IMG/VR virus record: IMGVR_UViG_3300005336_000019
Span: 12,513-76,512 of that record
Direction: 5' to 3' (one strand)
From: a virus
Lineage: Duplodnaviria; Caudoviricetes
Length of the DNA stretch: 64,000 bases
Part shown: in pieces, positions 7,976 to 40,485 of the stretch
Position numbering within the stretch: position 1 is the first letter of the stretch
Layout: each line of letters opens with the position of its first letter
Program-made: the position numbers and the translations under genes
Notes under the pieces: model-generated
Told to the model about the DNA's origin: nothing
The model's input: the letters and a program-made list of their open reading frames with translations, nothing else
Databases searched by the model: none

Positions 7976-8458
7976 ATGCTGGACGCCGACCTCGTCCACG
8001 AGACGGGACACTTCAGCTACGCCGACGCCGAGCACCTGGCTGACCTGTGGAACCGGGCCTACCCGGCGATGCGGCAGATCATCACCCGGTACATCGAGAG
8101 CCAGCGGGAGTACATCGAGCGGAGGGGCTGGGTCATCGACCCGAATCACCCCCACGCCGAAGTGCTCCAGGAGCGCGCCACCCCGGAACGGAAGGCCCGG
8201 TACCGGCTGAAGCTGTCGGAAGAGCTGCGCCGGGACCTCGGCCAGCTCGACCGGGGCACGCACAAGCCGTGCACCCGCAGCCCGGGATGCTTCTCGGTGA
8301 CGGCCGCCTACATGGCGGTGCGGAGCCTGATCAGTCACAGCTCCCTCAACAGTGAGGGGCTGGCCAACATCTACCGCCTGGCCGCCGATCTGGCCGAGGC
8401 GGAGGAGCGGGTCAACGAGGCCCGCAAGAAGTGGCACCAGGAACAGGAGAAGAAGTGA
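7976..8458 (+). CDS. hypothetical protein
   Basis: High GC3. Confidence 0.8.
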   Translation: MLDADLVHETGHFSYADAEHLADLWNRAYPAMRQIITRYIESQREYIERRGWVIDPNHPHAEVLQERATPERKARYRLKLSEELRRDLGQLDRGTHKPCTRSPGCFSVTAAYMAVRSLISHSSLNSEGLANIYRLAADLAEAEERVNEARKKWHQEQEKK

Positions 8459-8697
8459 ACGCAGAAGTCGAGGTCCCCGTCGCCGAGAGCATCGCCGTGG
8501 GTCTGGCGATCGTCTTCTCGGATCTTCCGCAGAGCACCATCACGTGGATGTCCGAGCTGATGGTGCGCACCTGGCACGAGGGGCCGGACCGCTCCGACGA
8601 CCTGCTCTTCAACGCCCTCGACAAGGAGGTCCGGGCGGGCAACGAGGACGCCATCCGCATGGTCCTCGCCGCCGCCCGGCGCGGTCTGAAGGTCTGA
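8455..8697 (+). CDS. hypothetical protein
   Basis: GTGA coupling. Confidence 0.8.
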   Translation: MNAEVEVPVAESIAVGLAIVFSDLPQSTITWMSELMVRTWHEGPDRSDDLLFNALDKEVRAGNEDAIRMVLAAARRGLKV

Positions 8698-8767
8698 CTC
8701 CGAGGCCGAAACCCCTGGAAGGGGGTCGTGGGACGAATGGAAGTCCCGCCTGACGATGGCCGTCAGA
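8693..8767 (+). ncRNA. Hammerhead ribozyme, type II (HHR1)
   Basis: CTGAC-TCCGA-GGCC-GAAA-CCCCT-GGAA-GGGGG-TC^-GTGGGAC-GAATGGAA-GTCCCGC-CTGACGA-T-GGCC-GTCAG; complete core, predicted cleavage after 8727. Confidence 0.9.
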
Positions 8768-8795
8768 AGAATTCGGAACGGGAGGAGAACGCATC

Positions 8796-9017
8796 ATGGA
8801 ACTGCCCAACCGCGCCGAGGTGCGCAGCCAGATCAGCTCGAAGTTCCCGGGCCTGCCCAACGACACCCTGGACTGGGTGGCGGGCATGCTCTCCGACAAG
8901 ATCGAGGCCGACTGGCAGACCGCCGACGCCGAGTTCCACCGCGAGATGGAGCGCGCGATCCGGGCCGGTGAAGAGCACGCGATCCTCGTGGCCCTCGCCG
9001 CGCTCAAGGCCGTCTGA
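8796..9017 (+). CDS. hypothetical protein directly downstream of HHR1
   Basis: RBS GGAGGAG, ATG. Confidence 0.8.
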   Translation: MELPNRAEVRSQISSKFPGLPNDTLDWVAGMLSDKIEADWQTADAEFHREMERAIRAGEEHAILVALAALKAV

Positions 9018-9032
9018 CCTACGGGTCGCATT

Positions 9033-9090
9033 GAAGGGGCTCCGGTTGCGGCCGGGGCCCCTTCTGCGTATCGTCTTTGACCTAGGCCAT
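9033..9090 (+). promoter_or_regulatory. Terminator-like hairpin with -35 (TTGCGG) in loop, -10 TATCGT and box TTGACCTAGGCCAT
   Basis: GAAGGGGCTCCGG-TTGCGG-CCGGGGCCCCTTC; 17-bp spacer to TATCGT 9069-9074; box 9077-9090. Confidence 0.7.
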
Positions 9091-9105
9091 TCGGATGGGA
9101 GAGAC

Positions 9106-9908: not shown

Positions 9909-10370
9909 ATGCCGCTGATCTGGACTCAAGGGAACCTGCTGGAGTCGGCGGCGCAAGGACTGGTCAGCCCGGTCAACTGCGTCGGCGTGCCGGGTGCCGG
10001 GCTGGCCCGGCAATTCAAGGACCGCTGGCCCATGCAGGTCGAGGAGTACGTGACCTTCTGCCGGGAGGGCCGGATGAAGCCCGGCCTGGTGCACGATGCA
10101 CTTCTGCCGGACGGGCGCCGGATCCTGAGCATCGCCACCAAGCGGCACTGGCGGGACAACTCACGGATCGAGGACGTGGATCGGGGGCTGGCCGCTCTGA
10201 AGGAGTACCTGGACGAGACGGGCCTGATCTCGGTCGCTCTCCCGGCGCTCGGCTGCGGGCTGGGCGGCCTGCCGAAGGCTCTCGTAGCCCGGCGGGTGCA
10301 GTTCTGGCTGGCCGACAATTTCTCCGTGGTCTACGTCTACGGGCTCGACGAGCCGGAGGTGTCGGCGTGA
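9909..10370 (+). CDS. Macrodomain protein (DarG/TARG1-like ADP-ribosyl hydrolase)
   Basis: GNLL, VNCVGVPGAGLARQFK, TKRHWR, ALPALGCGLGGL motifs. Confidence 0.9.
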   Translation: MPLIWTQGNLLESAAQGLVSPVNCVGVPGAGLARQFKDRWPMQVEEYVTFCREGRMKPGLVHDALLPDGRRILSIATKRHWRDNSRIEDVDRGLAALKEYLDETGLISVALPALGCGLGGLPKALVARRVQFWLADNFSVVYVYGLDEPEVSA

Positions 10371-10584: not shown

Positions 10585-11190
10585 ATGGCGATGACCCGCG
10601 AAGAGGAGACGGCGCTGGCGAAGGAGATGGCCGAGGAGATGGGCCTGAACCTGCCGTACGCCGCCCAGGTGGGCTTCGAGTACGACGTGAAGGCGGCCCG
10701 GCAGAAGGCCGAGGAACTGCGAGACCTGGCCCGCAGGCGGGAGCAGGAGTCGCGCGACTCGTTCGATCGGTGCGACACGGACGGCGCCCTCTCGCAGTGG
10801 GCGAGCGGGATCAACGCCGAGAAGTACCGGCTCCAGGCCGACATCGTCGAGAACGGCGGCATGTGGTACTTCCCGGCCCTCTTCGACCTGGAGGGCAACC
10901 TGGTTCCGGCCCGGGAGGCGTACGGCCAGTACGGATCCTTCTGGTCTCTGCTGGACGCCGACGGGAACCGCACCGGCCAGACCTTCAACGAGTCGAAGGC
11001 CCAGAACGACAAGGTGAAGATCCGCAACGATGCCCGGAAGGGCTACTACGTCGGCTCGGTTCTGGCCCCGGCCAGAGTCGTGACGCGCGGCCAGTCCGTC
11101 ACCTCGGTCGCCTGCCACATCGACCGGAACGACGGCGGCTGGGACCCGGACGTGATGGTGCTCGACAACGGGAAGGGCGAGCAGGAGTGA
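10585..11190 (+). CDS. hypothetical phage protein
   Basis: RBS CAGGAGAAG; SFDRCDTDGALSQWA motif. Confidence 0.85.
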   Translation: MAMTREEETALAKEMAEEMGLNLPYAAQVGFEYDVKAARQKAEELRDLARRREQESRDSFDRCDTDGALSQWASGINAEKYRLQADIVENGGMWYFPALFDLEGNLVPAREAYGQYGSFWSLLDADGNRTGQTFNESKAQNDKVKIRNDARKGYYVGSVLAPARVVTRGQSVTSVACHIDRNDGGWDPDVMVLDNGKGEQE

Positions 11191-14894: not shown

Positions 14895-15319
14895 TGAGCC
14901 TGCGCCAGGAAGCCGAAGCACTGTTCTTCGGAGTCGGAGTCCAGGAGCTGTACGGCCACTGGTCCTGGGCCGACCGGGGCTCGATGTTCATTCGGTTCGG
15001 CGAGTGGGAGCCGGGCCAGGCGCCCGACACCTGGGCCTACCGGGTTCACGCACCTCACCCGCTTGACAGTGATCGCCGGATCGACAAGGTGATCACGTAC
15101 TCGGTGCTGTACACAGCAGCCGAGCTGATCGCCTACGAGAACGCCGACACCGAGAAGCCGTTCCACCCGCCGAGCGAAGAAACCGGTCGAGCCTGTTCCA
15201 TGTGGGTCTTCAGCGACGAACTCGGCACGTTCGACCCTCACACTCTGGACCAGGTTCTCCAGGTTGCCGTGTTCGGCGGCGTGAAGTACCCCCACTTCGA
15301 GCCCCGCAACCGGGGCTGA
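14894..15319 (+). CDS. hypothetical protein
   Basis: TGATG coupling. Confidence 0.8.
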   Translation: MSLRQEAEALFFGVGVQELYGHWSWADRGSMFIRFGEWEPGQAPDTWAYRVHAPHPLDSDRRIDKVITYSVLYTAAELIAYENADTEKPFHPPSEETGRACSMWVFSDELGTFDPHTLDQVLQVAVFGGVKYPHFEPRNRG

Positions 15320-16257: not shown

Positions 16258-16538
16258 ACCCCGAACTGTTCAAGGCGGGAAGCGTCGAGCTGCCGAACGG
16301 CGGGTGCATCACCGTCGTGGAATTCATGGGGCATCCGATCGCCGAGGGCCCGGCCGAGGCCCTGGATGGCGAGGGTGCGGCCGAGAGGGTTCAGGAGGCT
16401 TTCTGTGCTGCTCTCGTCGCCGCCCTGTCCATGGTGATGGGGAGCGAGCAGTTCGGCCGGTACGCGCCCAGGGAGTGGACGTACTGGCACCCGATGGCCC
16501 CGCCCCTGGCGAGGCTTCCGAAGGGAGAAGAGGGATGA
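16254..16538 (+). CDS. hypothetical protein (paralog family B)
   Basis: VVEFMGHPI motif. Confidence 0.8.
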   Translation: MNPELFKAGSVELPNGGCITVVEFMGHPIAEGPAEALDGEGAAERVQEAFCAALVAALSMVMGSEQFGRYAPREWTYWHPMAPPLARLPKGEEG

Positions 16539-16783
16539 AGGGAATGGACGGGCAGCTCATGCGAGCCGTGGCCCGGCTCCACGACGACGAGCTGGAAACC
16601 CGGCGCCGCTGGGCCCAGCACATCCGGGAGGAGTTCGGGAAGTACCACGACCACTCCGGCGGCGGCGAGTGCGGCGCCTGCGGGGCGATCCAGGCGGCGA
16701 ACTGGATGGACCCGGACTATGTCAAGGATGGCCCGCTGGCGGAGCCGTTCGGGACCTGGCGGGACCGTCACCCCAGCATGTGA
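16535..16783 (+). CDS. hypothetical protein (HxH...CxxC)
   Basis: ATGA coupling. Confidence 0.75.
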   Translation: MKGMDGQLMRAVARLHDDELETRRRWAQHIREEFGKYHDHSGGGECGACGAIQAANWMDPDYVKDGPLAEPFGTWRDRHPSM

Positions 16784-16784
16784 T

Positions 16785-16854
16785 CTGACCAGAGGCCGAA
16801 ACCGGGCAGCCAGCCCGGTCGTGCAGTGAGACTGCACCTGACGATGGCCGTCAG
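16785..16854 (+). ncRNA. Hammerhead ribozyme, type II (HHR2)
   Basis: CTGAC-CAGA-GGCC-GAAA-CCGGGC-AGCCA-GCCCGG-TC^-GTGCAG-TGAGA-CTGCAC-CTGACGA-T-GGCC-GTCAG; predicted cleavage after 16820. Confidence 0.9.
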
Positions 16855-16870
16855 TGAGAGAGGAAGGGTG

Positions 16871-29561: not shown

Positions 29562-30382
29562 CGCTTGATCCCCATCTCTTTGCGCAGCCTGTCGGCCGTC
29601 TCCTGCGCCGTCCTGGCGGCCCGGTCCAACTCCCTGACGGCAGACTCTGCCCGATCCTTCGCCCTGTCCAGGCGGAGGCGCCCCTGGACGAGGGCCTGAA
29701 GGGCTTCAGCAGCCCCCTCCGGCTCCAGCTTGTCCTCCCAGGAGTACTCGGCCAGGCCGACCCCCAGAGCGGCCTCCAGGCGGTCCATGAGTTCGAGGCG
29801 CCGCCGGTCCTTCTCGTTGAAGGTGCCCCGCTGGCGCTGCGCCTGCCGCTCCTGGTCGTGGAACTTCTGCCGCAGCTCCCGCTCCTGCCTCTGGAGCGCG
29901 TTCGTCCGGGTGGTCTCGGTGTTCTTCAGCAGGGTGATGAGCAGGCCCGGCGTGATCTGCGCCTCCCGCTCCTCCGGCTTCACGAGCACTTTGAACCGGC
30001 GCCCCCGCGTGCCGGGCATCATCAGGCCCCAGCCCTTGGGCAGCTCGTCGTCCTGCACGATCCCCTCGTGCGGCACGACCAGCCAGAAGATGTTGCAGTA
30101 TGGCCACCACGCCTCGGCCTTCTTCGGCTCTTTCAGCTCCCGGAGCCAGTCGGCGCGGCTCACCTTCAGCTCGCAGACCTCGACGATCCCGGCGCCGCGC
30201 GAAGCCCACAGTCCGATGTGCACGGCGTCGGCCCGGCGCCCGGAGTGGCCGGGCGCGGTGACCTCGGTCAGGTACACGGCTCCGGCCCCGGCAAGGTCGA
30301 GCTGATCTTTGTCGCTGATGAAGTGCTGGCGGAGCTTGTCGTCCAGCTCGGCCGTGGTCATGCCGTTCGGCGTGGCCATCAC
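29558..30382 (-). CDS. MmcB-like PD-(D/E)xK nuclease
   Basis: RRADAV...ELKVSRADWLRELK.P.K...ELPKGWGL. Confidence 0.8.
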   Translation of the reverse strand: MMATPNGMTTAELDDKLRQHFISDKDQLDLAGAGAVYLTEVTAPGHSGRRADAVHIGLWASRGAGIVEVCELKVSRADWLRELKEPKKAEAWWPYCNIFWLVVPHEGIVQDDELPKGWGLMMPGTRGRRFKVLVKPEEREAQITPGLLITLLKNTETTRTNALQRQERELRQKFHDQERQAQRQRGTFNEKDRRRLELMDRLEAALGVGLAEYSWEDKLEPEGAAEALQALVQGRLRLDRAKDRAESAVRELDRAARTAQETADRLRKEMGIKR

Positions 30383-34515: not shown

Positions 34516-35028
34516 TCAGCCGATCCGGCCGCCCGGCCAGACGAACGTTTTGATCTCGGTGTTCTTCAAGATCTTCAAGCACCCTGCGCAGGGCTGCTCG
34601 GTGATGTACATCGTGGCACCGACCAGGCGGCTGCGATCCGAGACATCCAGCAGGGCGTTCATCTCGGCGTGCACCGCGATGCACGTGCCGGGCCCGGTGT
34701 CGTACGAACTCCCGGGGGCCACCGACCAGGTGCAGGGCCACATCTCGCCGCAGGCGCACTGGCCGGTGAAAACCCGGCACTTGCAGTCCGGCGGGTGTGG
34801 CGGCCCAGGGCACCGCGAGATCTCGTAGTGCCTGCCGCGCGGGCACTCACCGGCCAGGCAGCTCTCGCCACCGCGCGGGCCGCCGTTGTAGCCGCAGCCG
34901 ATGACCCGATGAGCCTCATCCAGCAGAACGGCCCCGACCTGTCGCCTGGTGCAGTCACCCCGGAGGGAGACGGCCTCGGCGATGCCGAGGGCCCAGGCGT
35001 CCCAGTCGGGGCGCTCCGCCGTTCTCAC
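34516..35028 (-). CDS. dCMP deaminase with Cys-rich insertion
   Basis: [25 protein letters not shown]. Confidence 0.92.
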
Positions 35029-35299: not shown

Positions 35300-35542
35300 T
35301 CACTTCTCGTCGGGAAGCTGGTCCACGTAGGCGGCCTTCGAGCGCCAGCGCGTCGGGCATGCCGTGCACCGGATCTCGGAGTAGTCGCTGGGGGTGCGGT
35401 GGTAGCCGTTGAAGGCGGAGTAGTTCGCCTTCCTGACCGTCACCACCCAGTGGCCGAAGTGCTGCTTTCGGTTCCGGCATGCCGTTCCGGACCGGCCACG
35501 GTCGCTGACATGGCCGTGGCTGTCCCAGCCGGATCCGGTCAC
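35300..35542 (-). CDS. hypothetical protein
   Basis: NYSAFNG...SDYS..RC..C..RWR. Confidence 0.8.
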   Translation of the reverse strand: MTGSGWDSHGHVSDRGRSGTACRNRKQHFGHWVVTVRKANYSAFNGYHRTPSDYSEIRCTACPTRWRSKAAYVDQLPDEK

Positions 35543-37642: not shown

Positions 37643-37786
37643 TTTTCCTTTTCCTCTCCGATACGAGAATGCGGGGGTCGCCTACTACGACCGCAGGGGA
37701 TCTTTCACCAGGAGAGCTGCCACGCAGATCACTGGAGTTGGCCTCACCCTGCCCAAGCGGAGTAAGGATTTCCGCAGGCACCGCCG

Positions 37787-37859
37787 TGCTCCTGGCAGGA
37801 ATTGAACCTGCGACATCCGGATCCGGAATCCGGCGCTCTATCCCCTGAGCTACAGGAGC
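37787..37859 (-). tRNA. tRNA-Arg(CCG)
   Basis: Cloverleaf; CCGGA-TTCCGGA-TCCGG; GGTTCAA T-loop; no encoded CCA. Confidence 0.95.
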
Positions 37860-37868
37860 TTTCCTCTC

Positions 37869-38264
37869 TCACCAGATGTCGTACAGCATCCGGCGAGGAA
37901 CCTTCTCGGCCTTCTCGTACAGCCGACGTTCGAGTTCGCCCTTCGTGCGGCGCCCGGCTTCCAGCTTGCTCTTCACGTAGCGCCGGTTGGCGCGCTCGTG
38001 CTTACCAGCCCAGTAGGTCCGGCTGGAACTGGGGGTCCAGGCCCCGGTGTAGGTCCACCAGCGAGCGGTACGCCTCACCTTCCGGGGCTGCGGCCTGCGG
38101 CCCTGCCTCTCGGCGTCACGGAGTTCCGCAGCGCTGTAGCGCAGGTCGTAGACCTCGTGCTCGCGCACCGGAGTGATCGGCCGCTTGCGCCAGTACATCC
38201 TGTAGCCGTCAGGCCAGTCGCGCTGGTCGAACTTTCCGGGCGTGTGATGCGTCGTCTTGCCCAT
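37869..38264 (-). CDS. very basic (Arg/Trp-rich) hypothetical protein inside tRNA array
   Basis: RBS AGGAGG, ATG; MGKTTHH...HERANRR...LYDIW. Confidence 0.8.
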   Translation of the reverse strand: MGKTTHHTPGKFDQRDWPDGYRMYWRKRPITPVREHEVYDLRYSAAELRDAERQGRRPQPRKVRRTARWWTYTGAWTPSSSRTYWAGKHERANRRYVKSKLEAGRRTKGELERRLYEKAEKVPRRMLYDIW

Positions 38265-38365
38265 CGGAATTCATCCTCCTAGGGCCGCGAATTTCGCGGA
38301 CCTAGGTGAATCCGGTGACGATGTCCATCACCCCTCCAAGCTGTTCAGGCACGGTTGTTCCCAAG

Positions 38366-38463
38366 TGCGCGAGGCAGGGATCGAACCTGCACTGGACGTC
38401 TCCACAGGGCCTTTCCGAGTGCCCTGTTCGCCGGGCTCTGACTCGGAGTTCCCTTACACGCGC
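38366..38463 (-). ncRNA. tRNA-like RNA with non-canonical D region and 10-nt anticodon-position loop (possible pseudoknot)
   Basis: Acceptor GCGCGTG/CTCGCGC-A, T arm GCAGG-TTCGATC-CCTGC, variable arm, ACAGGGC-ACTCGGAAAG-GCCCTGT; TCCGAGT in D region complementary to ACTCGGA. Confidence 0.75.
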
Positions 38464-38554
38464 GACCGCACTGCGCAATGCGGTCCTTTACCACCGACTG
38501 TAATTCCGACCGGGTTTTTCAGACCACGGAAGGATATGGTGTCGTCGGCACACG

Positions 38555-38627
38555 CTCTCCTGACTGGACTTGAACCAGTAACATCCGGATTAACAATCCG
38601 GCGCTCTGCCGGTTGAGCTACAGGAGA
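38555..38627 (-). tRNA. tRNA-Asn(GTT)
   Basis: CCGGA-TTGTTAA-TCCGG; cloverleaf. Confidence 0.95.
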
Positions 38628-38762
38628 TCGAATCTGAAATTGTAGTGGGCCTCATCCCTAGCACCACGCGGCGCACCGACCTTGTTCTGCTGCGCTTCTC
38701 AACTGTTCCGGTTGTCGGGCGGATGGCAACCGGACCGCACTCCTATCTCCGCCACGTGCACG

Positions 38763-38834
38763 CTCCCCCGTCTGGACTTGAACCAAAACTTCCGATTCCA
38801 GAGACCGGCGGTCTGCCAATTAACCTACGGGGGA
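38763..38834 (-). tRNA. tRNA-Gln(CTG)
   Basis: CCGGT-CTCTGGA-ATCGG; U1-A72. Confidence 0.92.
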
Positions 38835-38853
38835 TCGCTCTTGAATTGTTGGC

Positions 38854-38945
38854 AACCGGACGGCAATGCTTCCACGCATGGACTATCTTCGCATGTATGT
38901 CCCACCCGCCACAGTGGGGCTGCGTTGATAGCTTACCGTCCGGCC
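38854..38945 (-). ncRNA. putative structured RNA (multi-branch) between tRNA-Phe and tRNA-Gln
   Basis: 13-bp closing stem GGCCGGACGGTAA/TTGCCGTCCGGTT plus four internal helices. Confidence 0.55.
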
Positions 38946-38947
38946 AG

Positions 38948-39023
38948 TGGCCCCGGCCCGATTTGAACGGGCGACCTCTCGCTTTTCAGGCGAGCGCTCT
39001 TTCGCGAACTGAGCTACAGGGCC
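38948..39023 (-). tRNA. tRNA-Phe(GAA)
   Basis: CTCGC-CTGAAAA-GCGAG. Confidence 0.93.
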
Positions 39024-39174
39024 TTGCACCCCTTGATGTATAGCTGGGCAGGGGCCGCCCTCCACTCGCCTCCCGGAGAAGGTTGGCTCATGGACTCGCT
39101 TTGCCTCACTCTCTGCCCGGTGGATAGTGGCCTTGTGAGCCACGAACTCCACCGGAATCTGCCTCCGAAGCCAG

Positions 39175-39248
39175 CGGTCCCGACGGGATTTGAACCCGCG
39201 ACCTCTCGGATGACAACCGAGTGCTCTGCCGAACTGAGCCACGAGACC
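39175..39248 (-). tRNA. tRNA-Asp(GTC)
   Basis: CTCGG-TTGTCAT-CCGAG; G73. Confidence 0.95.
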
Positions 39249-39273
39249 ATTGCTTCTTACCGCTGTTGAGTTG

Positions 39274-39320
39274 AAAAGGGAGCCCCGCTTTCCCGGCCTC
39301 CGCCTTACGGCGGGGCTCCC
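39274..39320 (-). terminator. intrinsic terminator within tRNA array
   Basis: GGGAGCCCCGC...GCGGGGCTCCC-TTTT on minus. Confidence 0.65.
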
Positions 39321-39343
39321 GATAGACCCGTCAGGGGGTCTCG

Positions 39344-39417
39344 TGGAGATGGAGGGATTCGAACCCCCGTCCTTCCGATCCGTAGTCGGCTGCCCCATCC
39401 AACTGGGCCACACCTCC
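39344..39417 (-). tRNA. tRNA-Arg(ACG)
   Basis: GCCGA-CTACGGA-TCGGA; GGTTCGAATCC. Confidence 0.93.
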
Positions 39418-39507
39418 ATCAGCCTTTCACCCTTCGCGCCAAGCGTGACCAAGGCAGGATCCAGGCCGACCGCATCCAAGCCCCAGGAAGCCGTGAGGAT
39501 GCGGCAG

Positions 39508-39580
39508 TACGCCCTACTGGACTTGAACCAGTGACACGAGGATTAAGAATCCCCTGCTCTGCCAACTGAGCTAAGGGCGC
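39508..39580 (-). tRNA. tRNA-Lys(CTT)
   Basis: GGGGA-TTCTTAA-TCCTC. Confidence 0.95.
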
Positions 39581-39587
39581 GCGTTCT

Positions 39588-39710
39588 TCAGTTCTGTCTG
39601 TCGTCCTTGGGGCCCCAGTAGTGGCCCGTGTAGACGTGGACGGGGTATCCGTCCTTCTGCACCTTCTTCAGGTGCCCTTCGTACGTCCGAGCCTTGCACT
39701 TACAGCTCAC
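39588..39710 (-). CDS. 40-aa basic peptide within tRNA array
   Basis: RBS AGAAGG, GTG; MSCKCKARTYEGHLKKVQKDGYP... Confidence 0.55.
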   Translation of the reverse strand: MSCKCKARTYEGHLKKVQKDGYPVHVYTGHYWGPKDDRQN

Positions 39711-39829
39711 GATCGCACCTTCTTTCTTGTCCCGATTCCAACAGGAACCCCTGGTTTCCCGGGACAGCGTTCCACCAGGGGTCTGCCTAGCGTCCGGCCG
39801 GTTCTGTCCTCCCGATCCTTCTGCTGGCA

Positions 39830-39860
39830 TACGGCTTACGGATTATGAGTCCGCGCCGCA
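39830..39860 (-). ncRNA. free-standing CAU anticodon stem-loop
   Basis: TGCGGC-GCGGA-CTCATAA-TCCGT-AA-GCCGTA; no D or T arm. Confidence 0.55.
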
Positions 39861-39866
39861 CCTTCG

Positions 39867-39940
39867 TATCCCTGACTGGACTTGAACCAGTGGCCTTTCC
39901 CTTATGAGGGGAGTGCTCTGACCGACTGAGCTACAGGGAT
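39867..39940 (-). tRNA. tRNA with CAT anticodon (Met or Ile2)
   Basis: CTCCC-CTCATAA-GGGAA; A1-U72 paired, so not a typical initiator. Confidence 0.9.
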
Positions 39941-39945
39941 CTGCG

Positions 39946-40018
39946 AGCCCCCGACCGGAATTGAACCGATGGCATCCGACTTACGAAGACGGCGCTCTAC
40001 CGACTGAGCTACGGAGGC
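39946..40018 (-). tRNA. tRNA-Thr(CGT)
   Basis: CCGTC-TTCGTAA-GTCGG (one U-U mismatch). Confidence 0.92.
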
Positions 40019-40020
40019 AT

Positions 40021-40095
40021 GAACTCCGGGTCCTAGGAGGGACGCAGACTTGCATGGGATAGCGAGCTGAGAAACAACGCTAGGCCCCGGAGTTC
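40021..40095 (-). ncRNA. long-stem RNA A
   Basis: GAACTCCGGG-G-CCTAG...CTAGG-A-CCCGGAGTTC. Confidence 0.55.
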
Positions 40096-40218
40096 TGTCG
40101 GGAGAATCCTGCCCGATCTTTAATCGACCACCCGCTGGATCGATGGACAGGTTCCTCCCTTTGCGAGACACCAACCTCGCGATTCCCAGGCTGTAGACCT
40201 GGCGGCAGCGGGAACTGC

Positions 40219-40284
40219 GGACTCCGGGCGGAGTGGACGACGTCGTAAGGGAAAGAGGTACTTCCGATACGCCGCCCGGAGTCC
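40219..40284 (-). ncRNA. long-stem RNA B (related to A)
   Basis: GGACTCCGGGCGG...CCGCCCGGAGTCC. Confidence 0.55.
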
Positions 40285-40286
40285 AG

Positions 40287-40361
40287 TCGGAATGGCGGGA
40301 TTTGAACCCGCGACCTCTCGCTCCCGAAGCGAGTGCTCTACGCAAGCTGAGCCACATTCCG
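40287..40361 (-). tRNA. tRNA-Pro(CGG)
   Basis: CTCGC-TTCGGGA-GCGAG; C1-G72. Confidence 0.95.
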
Positions 40362-40410
40362 ATTGAAGGTTCCCCAGGGTGACGGGGGGGTTGTAACCCC
40401 GGGGAACCAG

Positions 40411-40485
40411 CAGGGATAGCAGGATTTGAACCTACGACACGCCGCTTTGGAGACGGCTGCTCTGGCCGAACTGAGCTATATCCCT
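40411..40485 (-). tRNA. tRNA-Trp(CCA)
   Basis: GCCGT-CTCCAAA-GCGGC; G73. Confidence 0.95.

Follow-up and report, generated by a model that had tools for sequence, protein, structure and literature searches.

A large uncultured Streptomyces phage probably carries, in the spacer between two of its small genes, a functional type II hammerhead ribozyme that would cut its own transcript and whose 3′ tail could pair with either of two partners. The element, named HHR1 here, lies in the window, by which we mean the whole 64-kb stretch of DNA that was analysed; the source is a 76.5-kb IMG/VR virus record with an estimated completeness of 40. Its nearest cultured relatives are Streptomyces phages of about 185 kb, of which Kela and JustBecause match half of a 1.9-kb query at about 79% identity; for Quantum, Kradal, EhyElimayoE and Satis the identity to this query is about 75%. 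The parts of HHR1 and its neighbourhood are as follows (window positions):

8431..8697, + strand: upstream 88-aa ORF, with its UGA stop at 8695-8697; homologue of Kela gp269
8693-8767, + strand: HHR1, type II hammerhead, intergenic, between two small phage genes of the same strand
8693-8698 with 8762-8767, + strand: outer stem II, UCUGAC with GUCAGA; its 5′ strand is referred to as the clamp strand
8699-8703, + strand: bulge UCCGA, in which 8699-8702 is the candidate pseudoknot partner of loop I positions 8738-8741
8704-8707 with 8758-8761, + strand: inner stem II, GGCC with GGCC
8708-8710, + strand: core residues G12, A13 and A14, followed by A15.1 at 8711
A8711-U8716 with G8721-U8726, + strand: stem III, 6 bp, with a GGAA loop at 8717-8720
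8727, + strand: C17, with the predicted cut at 8727/8728
8728-8734 with 8743-8749, + strand: stem I, 7 bp, with the 8-nt loop GAAUGGAA at 8735-8742
8750-8756, + strand: core residues C3, U4, G5, A6, C7, G8 and A9 (CUGACGA)
8757, + strand: extra U between A9 and G10.1; the Rfam alignment puts an insertion at the same spot
8762-8767, + strand: tail GUCAGA, the 3′ strand of outer stem II
8750-8755 with 8761-8766, + strand: masking hairpin (alternative pairing), 6 bp, tail onto core
8796..9017, + strand: downstream 73-aa ORF, with a purine-rich ribosome-binding region at about 8780-8790; homologue of Quantum gp267
9033-9064, + strand: stable conserved hairpin 3′ of the 73-aa ORF

The topology is that of type II, with loops closing stems I and III and the 5′ and 3′ ends leaving through stem II, which totals 4 + 6 bp with a 5-nt bulge. 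As in the class criteria, stem III is closed by an A-U pair (A8711-U8726) and residue 17 is not a G but a C. An earlier, sequence-only reading of this DNA had described a full core, stems I-III and a GUC-type site, all of which are present according to both the sequence and the descriptor coordinates given below. It had also placed one extra U between A9 and G10.1 and the upstream stop codon inside stem II, and these correspond to U8757 and to UGA 8695-8697 in the 5′ strand. The minimum free energy (MFE) structure of the 75-nt HHR1 RNA is the hammerhead secondary structure (-34.6 kcal/mol, z -2.55), a value equalled by 5 of 200 shuffles.

The Rfam model RF02276 (Hammerhead_II) aligned with HHR1 over its whole length and scored 24.6 bits (E 0.0058 in a 301-nt search). 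The Rfam comparison suggested in the earlier reading was thus borne out in its full-length alignment and fell short in its score, which is below the gathering score of 37 bits, a threshold that belongs to the seed-based model and is not a property of the ribozyme class. An Rfam scan of the 64-kb window at gathering cut-offs returned 11 matches, all of them tRNAs, and no ribozyme, and a whole-window scan by E-value reported a second hammerhead (HHR2, see below) with the HHR1 site absent. Since the subclass to which these elements belong scores below the Rfam cut-off, it is missed by routine annotation. The window contains exactly two matches, HHR1 and 16784-16855, to a type II descriptor that demands GAAA, a stem III of 4 bp or more closed by A-U, a residue H17 other than G, a stem I of 5 bp or more, CUGANGA and a stem II of 3 bp or more. 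Dinucleotide shuffling of the window (200 replicates) gave 0.005 matches on average, with any match in 1 of the 200. The low Rfam score would be in keeping with an inactive relic or chance look-alike that no longer cuts and is at most a structured spacer or a stabilising cluster of hairpins, but the descriptor expectation of 0.005 per shuffled window speaks against a chance origin.

Two other RNA features were recorded in the window. Eleven tRNA genes (Arg x2, Asn, Gln, Phe, Asp, Lys, Met, Thr, Pro, Trp) are clustered at 37786-40485 on the - strand, opposite in orientation to the genes that carry the ribozymes. The other feature, at 34743-34817 (+ strand), weakly resembles twister-sister (RF02681, 23.8 bits; cut-off 34) and lacks one helix of the model.

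Kela and JustBecause carry an HHR1 orthologue at the same junction, 3′ of their homologue of the 88-aa gene, and the gene that follows the ribozyme is a different one from that in the window. Compared with the window, the inner stem II pair G8705-C8760 is replaced by A-U, stem I shows one A-U pair changed to G-C and one G-C pair changed to G-U, and in the pairing between bulge and loop I an A-U pair is replaced by G-C. That the bulge can pair with loop I had been proposed from the letters of HHR1; UGGA 8738-8741 and UCCG 8699-8702 are indeed able to do so, and the possibility is kept in relatives through changes, as UGGG:CCCG in Kela, JustBecause and locus L226 and as CGGA:UCCG in locus L175. 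Over these five sequences the pairing shows one double-sided and one single-sided change. Most members of the subclass have a 3-nt loop I with no evident partner, and we therefore regard this candidate contact as confined to the HHR1 lineage rather than general to the subclass.

In four further relatives, namely Quantum, Satis, Kradal and EhyElimayoE, both flanking genes are present and are separated by just 28 nt, without the ribozyme. The phages can therefore dispense with the element here, and it represents an insert or a deletion at a mosaic junction. The spacer of Quantum (L003 1633-1662 versus window 8693-8795) retains CTCTGACCCGA 3′ of the upstream gene's stop codon, a piece that resembles the clamp strand and bulge, and it looks as if the remainder of a ribozyme had been deleted from it. 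The empty junction in four related phages would again suit a relic. Conservation in a different phage group argues the other way: Spernnie, a 50.8-kb phage of another subfamily, matches the ribozyme alone, in a gap without any annotated feature.

Two further copies were found in the same phage fragment:

16784-16855, + strand: HHR2, with stem II, core and tail like those of HHR1 and with unrelated stems I and III
G000:C1:9659-9736 (L029 1501-1578), + strand: third hammerhead, about 2.8 kb upstream of the window start

HHR2 sits between an ORF at 16304..16783 and a gene starting at about 16871. Its MFE structure is the hammerhead fold, and RF02276 aligns with 16794-16856 at 31.7 bits, under the cut-off of 37. 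A first covariance model, built from three orthologues, found HHR2 in the window with 47.8 bits (E 1.1e-11), the next match scoring 18.3 bits and lacking the core. The third hammerhead has a longer stem III and the cleavage triplet GUA, which is GUU or GUC in the orthologues of Kela, JustBecause and Quantum. According to a search of the whole record with the model, the fragment contains three strong copies; the first model further detected three hammerheads each in Kela, JustBecause and Quantum and six in Spernnie, weaker matches being left uncounted. All copies in Kela (three) and Spernnie (six) are located in gaps between genes and on the gene strand, those of Spernnie in the gaps 076/075, 073/072, 070/069, 069/068, 067/066 and 064/063. 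In that phage (L031, 40484-45706) the six hammerheads punctuate a leftward operon of small genes of about 5 kb, and none of them is annotated in the record. Weak covariance-model matches at window positions 35387-35451, 14958-15034 and 30008-30077 (the last on the - strand), and at 1769-1832 of L009/L010, were without a core and were discarded.

For the analysis of covariation, 16 hammerheads from five phages were aligned by fitting them to the structure of the model. Standard pairs filled 95.1% of the 345 cells, and 14 of the 23 pairs showed changes on both sides. The covariation score was 0.502, compared with 0.133 in shuffles, and was reached by none of 500 shuffles; sliding the partners by 1-3 columns as a control left only 30.7-47.4% of cells paired. 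Helix 3 was paired in 100% of cases, all seven pairs of stem I had double-sided changes somewhere in the family, and the A15.1-U16.1 pair was invariant (16 of 16 members). An independent analysis of seven sequences with MAFFT and RNAalifold, in which stems I and III of the paralogues were misaligned, confirmed only stem II and, in part, the other two helices. A degenerate core pattern was present in at least 129 stretches of IMG/VR, and a second covariance model, applied to 80 of these at least 129 loci, gave 102 hammerheads at E <=0.01, often several per locus, which indicates that this kind of ribozyme is abundant in viral contigs.

The earlier identification of HHR1 as a type II hammerhead is thus strongly supported by orthologues, paralogues and covariation. 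All catalytic residues are intact in HHR1 and in the 16 aligned members, in which the helices vary by compensatory substitutions, and this is hard to reconcile with an inactive remnant or a coincidental resemblance, an explanation that we hold to be very improbable. HHR1 is very probably a genuine self-cutting hammerhead.

The 3′ tail sets these elements apart. Its GUCAG is complementary to the 5′ clamp strand and, alternatively, to CUGAC of the core, a second pairing that is absent from the earlier reading. With G8 and the last C of GGCC, the GUCAG:CUGAC pairing is extended to a masking hairpin of 6 bp. IMG/VR was scanned for CUGA-N7-GAUGGCC-N′-UCAG in all 16 combinations of N7 and N′, and a match was assigned to hammerhead context when GGCCGAAA occurred within 110 nt upstream of it; in these patterns the inner stem and the extra U are kept constant, and several rows are close relatives. 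In hammerhead context N7 and N′ formed a Watson-Crick pair in 76 of 76 matches, with none in the other 12 combinations. The matches comprised C-G 53 times (49 distinct sequences), U-A 18 times (15), A-U twice and G-C three times, the last two classes being represented by one distinct sequence each. The 102 matches outside hammerhead context were distributed across the combinations, 40 of them as Watson-Crick partners and 62 as other pairs of bases. Applied to the 66 loci of the C-G scan, the second model confirmed 55 hammerheads. N7 is not constrained by catalysis and yet follows the tail base, which argues for a real pair between N7 and the tail.

In 36 of 67 distinct subclass members there is no 5′ CUGAN strand within 16 nt, so that the core is the sole partner of the tail in these members. 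In one member (L094/L253) the 5′ strand is CUGAC, the core CUGAU and the tail AUCAG; tail and core match perfectly here and the 5′ strand is mismatched. L073, which has a different inner stem, shows a U-G wobble at the N7-tail pair. The tail thus follows the core rather than the 5′ strand. With regard to distribution, 53 of 68 matches to the exact tail motif in IMG/VR were in hammerhead context. A 17-base tail motif occurred in at least 121 stretches of bacterial and archaeal genomes, with 4 in hammerhead context among the 121 listed; most of these genome matches are chance occurrences, at about the number that by our own estimate a 17-mer would have in this amount of DNA. The subclass, as delimited by these motifs, is mainly viral.

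The same letters can also be read as DNA. CTGACG-N5-CGTCAG is an inverted repeat that might be a protein-binding or recombination site, in which case the covariation of N7 and tail would have nothing to do with RNA folding. The 3′ half of the element is near-invariant among ribozymes with completely different stems I and III, the junction is mosaic (Kela has another downstream gene than the window, and Quantum lacks the ribozyme), and not a single G-U combination occurs among the 76 cases, all of which a DNA site would accommodate. In every case, however, one arm of the repeat coincides with the hammerhead core, which lies on the transcribed strand within a full ribozyme context, the pattern shows no comparably strict preference outside that context, and the U-G wobble of L073 fits pairing in RNA rather than in DNA. 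We therefore consider a DNA-level function to be highly unlikely and favour an RNA whose tail has two partners.

The predicted energies of the two folds of HHR1 are -34.3 kcal/mol for the active hammerhead and -31.2 kcal/mol for the masked form, which consists of stems I and III and the masking hairpin. In the ensemble, the pairs of stem II have a probability of about 0.98 and the masking pairs of about 0.02. The two states are therefore close in energy, in nearest-neighbour models that omit tertiary contacts. When the first 18 nt, i.e., the stop codon and a ribosome footprint, were held single-stranded, the MFE structure switched to the masked fold; RNAs without the clamp strand were likewise predicted to include the masking hairpin, and the 3′ cleavage product alone was predicted to form stem I and the masking hairpin, followed by the ribosome-binding site. 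In a context of 178 nt the predicted MFE structure of HHR1 has the masking hairpin and not stem II, and among the 67 subclass members the MFE structure contains the masked fold in 44 cases and stem II in 21, with neither of them in the remaining 2. Thermodynamics alone are therefore no guarantee of activity, and the masked fold in longer context is a further point that an inactive relic would explain. By analogy with a pseudoknot-type hammerhead in which one additional stem II pair lowered activity (Perreault et al., PMC3088659), a stem II of ten pairs might cut slowly.

The ribozymes of this family lie close behind stop codons. Among 111 distinct hammerheads (from the 16 aligned and the 80 fetched IMG/VR loci) 94 were evaluable, and in 89 of these 94 an upstream reading frame of 40 or more open codons ends 1-26 nt ahead of G12, stops further upstream being invisible to the scan. 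In Kela, the UGA inside the 5′ strand NCUGAC is the stop of all three annotated upstream genes (3/3). The embedded UGA is the stop of the upstream ORF in 21 of the 31 subclass members with a 5′ CUGAN strand; the other ten have a stop elsewhere within 24 nt (8) or no long ORF (2). Among the members without such a strand, the ORF stops at most 21 nt upstream of GGCC in 35 of 36. The stop of HHR1 is the embedded UGA, and that of HHR2 is 5 nt before the embedded UGA, just outside the clamp strand.

These positions, together with the switch to the masked fold when nucleotides 1-18 are single-stranded, are what one would expect of a ribozyme gated by translation. A ribosome terminating at UGA 8695-8697 would cover the clamp strand and inner stem II, so that the core is masked and no cut is made; with the upstream gene untranslated, the RNA would adopt the active fold and cut, and cleavage would report the translation state of the upstream gene. 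The stop codon within the clamp strand of HHR1, the embedded stops in 21 of 31 members and the stops near GGCC in 35 of 36 are all consistent with such gating; the stop of HHR2, which precedes its clamp strand, is not. The position of a stop codon is in any case weak evidence for gating, because compact phage genomes put any intergenic RNA beside a stop, and the tail would be unnecessary for it, because a ribosome on the stop blocks stem II even without a masking tail. We thus regard translational gating as unlikely for HHR1. Similarly doubtful to us is the wider proposition that the subclass is a natural two-state ribozyme with three competing strands, the fold of which is chosen by the terminating ribosome. 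If it were true, the cutting of phage messages would be coupled to translation of the upstream gene, and the subclass would constitute a ribosome-operated ribozyme switch that works without a ligand.

Most likely, the tail would act after cleavage or after the opening of stem II, gating by a terminating ribosome being the bolder alternative. In the mechanism that we favour, a multi-gene transcript containing HHR1 would cut itself between C8727 and G8728, as the chemistry of the class implies. The upstream message would then end in the stem III hairpin with a 2′,3′-cyclic phosphate, and the message of the 73-aa gene would start with a 5′-OH directly on the stem I hairpin. Pairing of the tail with the UCUGAC strand, which contains the upstream stop codon, would clamp stem II and hold the active fold, and pairing with CUGACG of the core would hide the catalytic residues. 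We posit that the tail, once cleavage has occurred or stem II has opened, snaps onto the core, whereby the upstream fragment would be released and re-ligation blocked. The downstream message would then begin with two hairpins, followed by an exposed ribosome-binding site. Given at least three ribozymes in this phage fragment, its transcript is probably cut into gene-sized pieces, with stability and translation uncoupled.

A PHROGs search of seven neighbourhood ORFs assigned no family to the five nearest, which include both genes flanking HHR1, and gave matches only further downstream, at 9909-10370 and 10585-11190. Pfam assigned no family to the four nearest ORFs, and the Kela homologues of the ORFs next to HHR1 are annotated as hypothetical.

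The hairpin behind the 73-aa ORF (9033-9064), which had also been noticed in the letters, proved to be real: it has 14 bp and is part of a structure of -43.3 kcal/mol (z -3.58), which none of 200 shuffles matched. In phage Quantum, a conserved counterpart follows the homologue of the 73-aa gene. A terminator scan did not call it, and it has no U tract; it may define where the message ends or add to its stability. The hairpin is conserved together with about 40 nt after it (TGCGTATC...GACCTAGGCCATT; window 9033-9100 versus Quantum L003 1905-1980), and this block may combine a terminator with a promoter. A 5′-OH message of about 337 nt, running from 8728 to the hairpin, would be a reasonable consequence of the predicted cleavage.

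Four RNA or possibly-RNA runs yielded short contigs only, none of which covers 8702-8809, and these are uninformative on expression and cleavage. In one RNA-library contig (run X19), 9027 is joined to 8007 via 12 other letters, at about 90% identity (8883-9027 and 8007-8087). This contig most likely comes from a relative with a different gene order, and its joint is not located at the HHR1 cut site.

Our literature search found no paper on a core-masking tail or on hammerheads of Streptomyces phages, and the relevant passages of PMC3088659 mention no masking tail, although its supplementary alignments may include members of the subclass. The ribozyme class, its type II form, its clusters between phage genes and the hypothesis that it processes transcripts have all been published. 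HHR1 belongs to a variant subclass of this known kind, which escapes standard annotation and has an alternative fold that covaries. The conserved pairing that hides the core and the strand that bears the stop codon offer a mutable handle on whether cleavage is timed, limited or irreversible in vivo, and the element is also present in the cultured relatives JustBecause and Kela, both of them Streptomyces phages. A review of 2019 concluded that the purpose of self-cleaving ribozymes in bacteria and phages needs more work (PMC6765202).

HHR1 has the core, the three-helix junction and the open stem II in common with known type II hammerheads (RF02276, PMC3088659). Clusters of such hammerheads were described in 2011 as flanking prophage genes, and the processing of long phage transcripts was proposed as their role (PMC3088659; review PMC6765202). 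Like these, the present elements lie between phage genes, on the gene strand and in several copies per operon, and a role in cutting the transcript is proposed for them as well. They differ in stem II, which has 2-3 bp in the RF02276 consensus and 4 + 6 bp with a 5-nt bulge in HHR1. The 3′ tail of the consensus, AGCCA, forms a pseudoknot with loop I (PMC3088659), whereas the tail GUCAGA of HHR1 has no complement in its loop GAAUGGAA. The candidate pseudoknot of HHR1 instead uses the bulge on the 5′ side, and its tail is complementary to the 5′ strand and the core.

Three type II hammerheads of Desulfovibrio vulgaris self-cleave in vivo according to cyPhyRNA-seq (PMC8782182). HHR1 shares their type II architecture, and genes of phage origin are among the neighbours at one of the D. 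vulgaris loci. Ends with 2′,3′-cyclic phosphate and 5′-OH were seen directly for the D. vulgaris ribozymes (PMC8782182), whereas those of HHR1 are predicted. A further likeness exists to RiboJ, which combines a hammerhead ribozyme with a downstream hairpin (PMC8942793). In RiboJ the ribozyme removes the upstream RNA and a hairpin on the 3′ product stands just ahead of the ribosome-binding site, and the same is predicted for HHR1. RiboJ, however, was engineered with a separate hairpin, whereas in HHR1 the hairpin would be made from the ribozyme's own core and would compete with the active fold.
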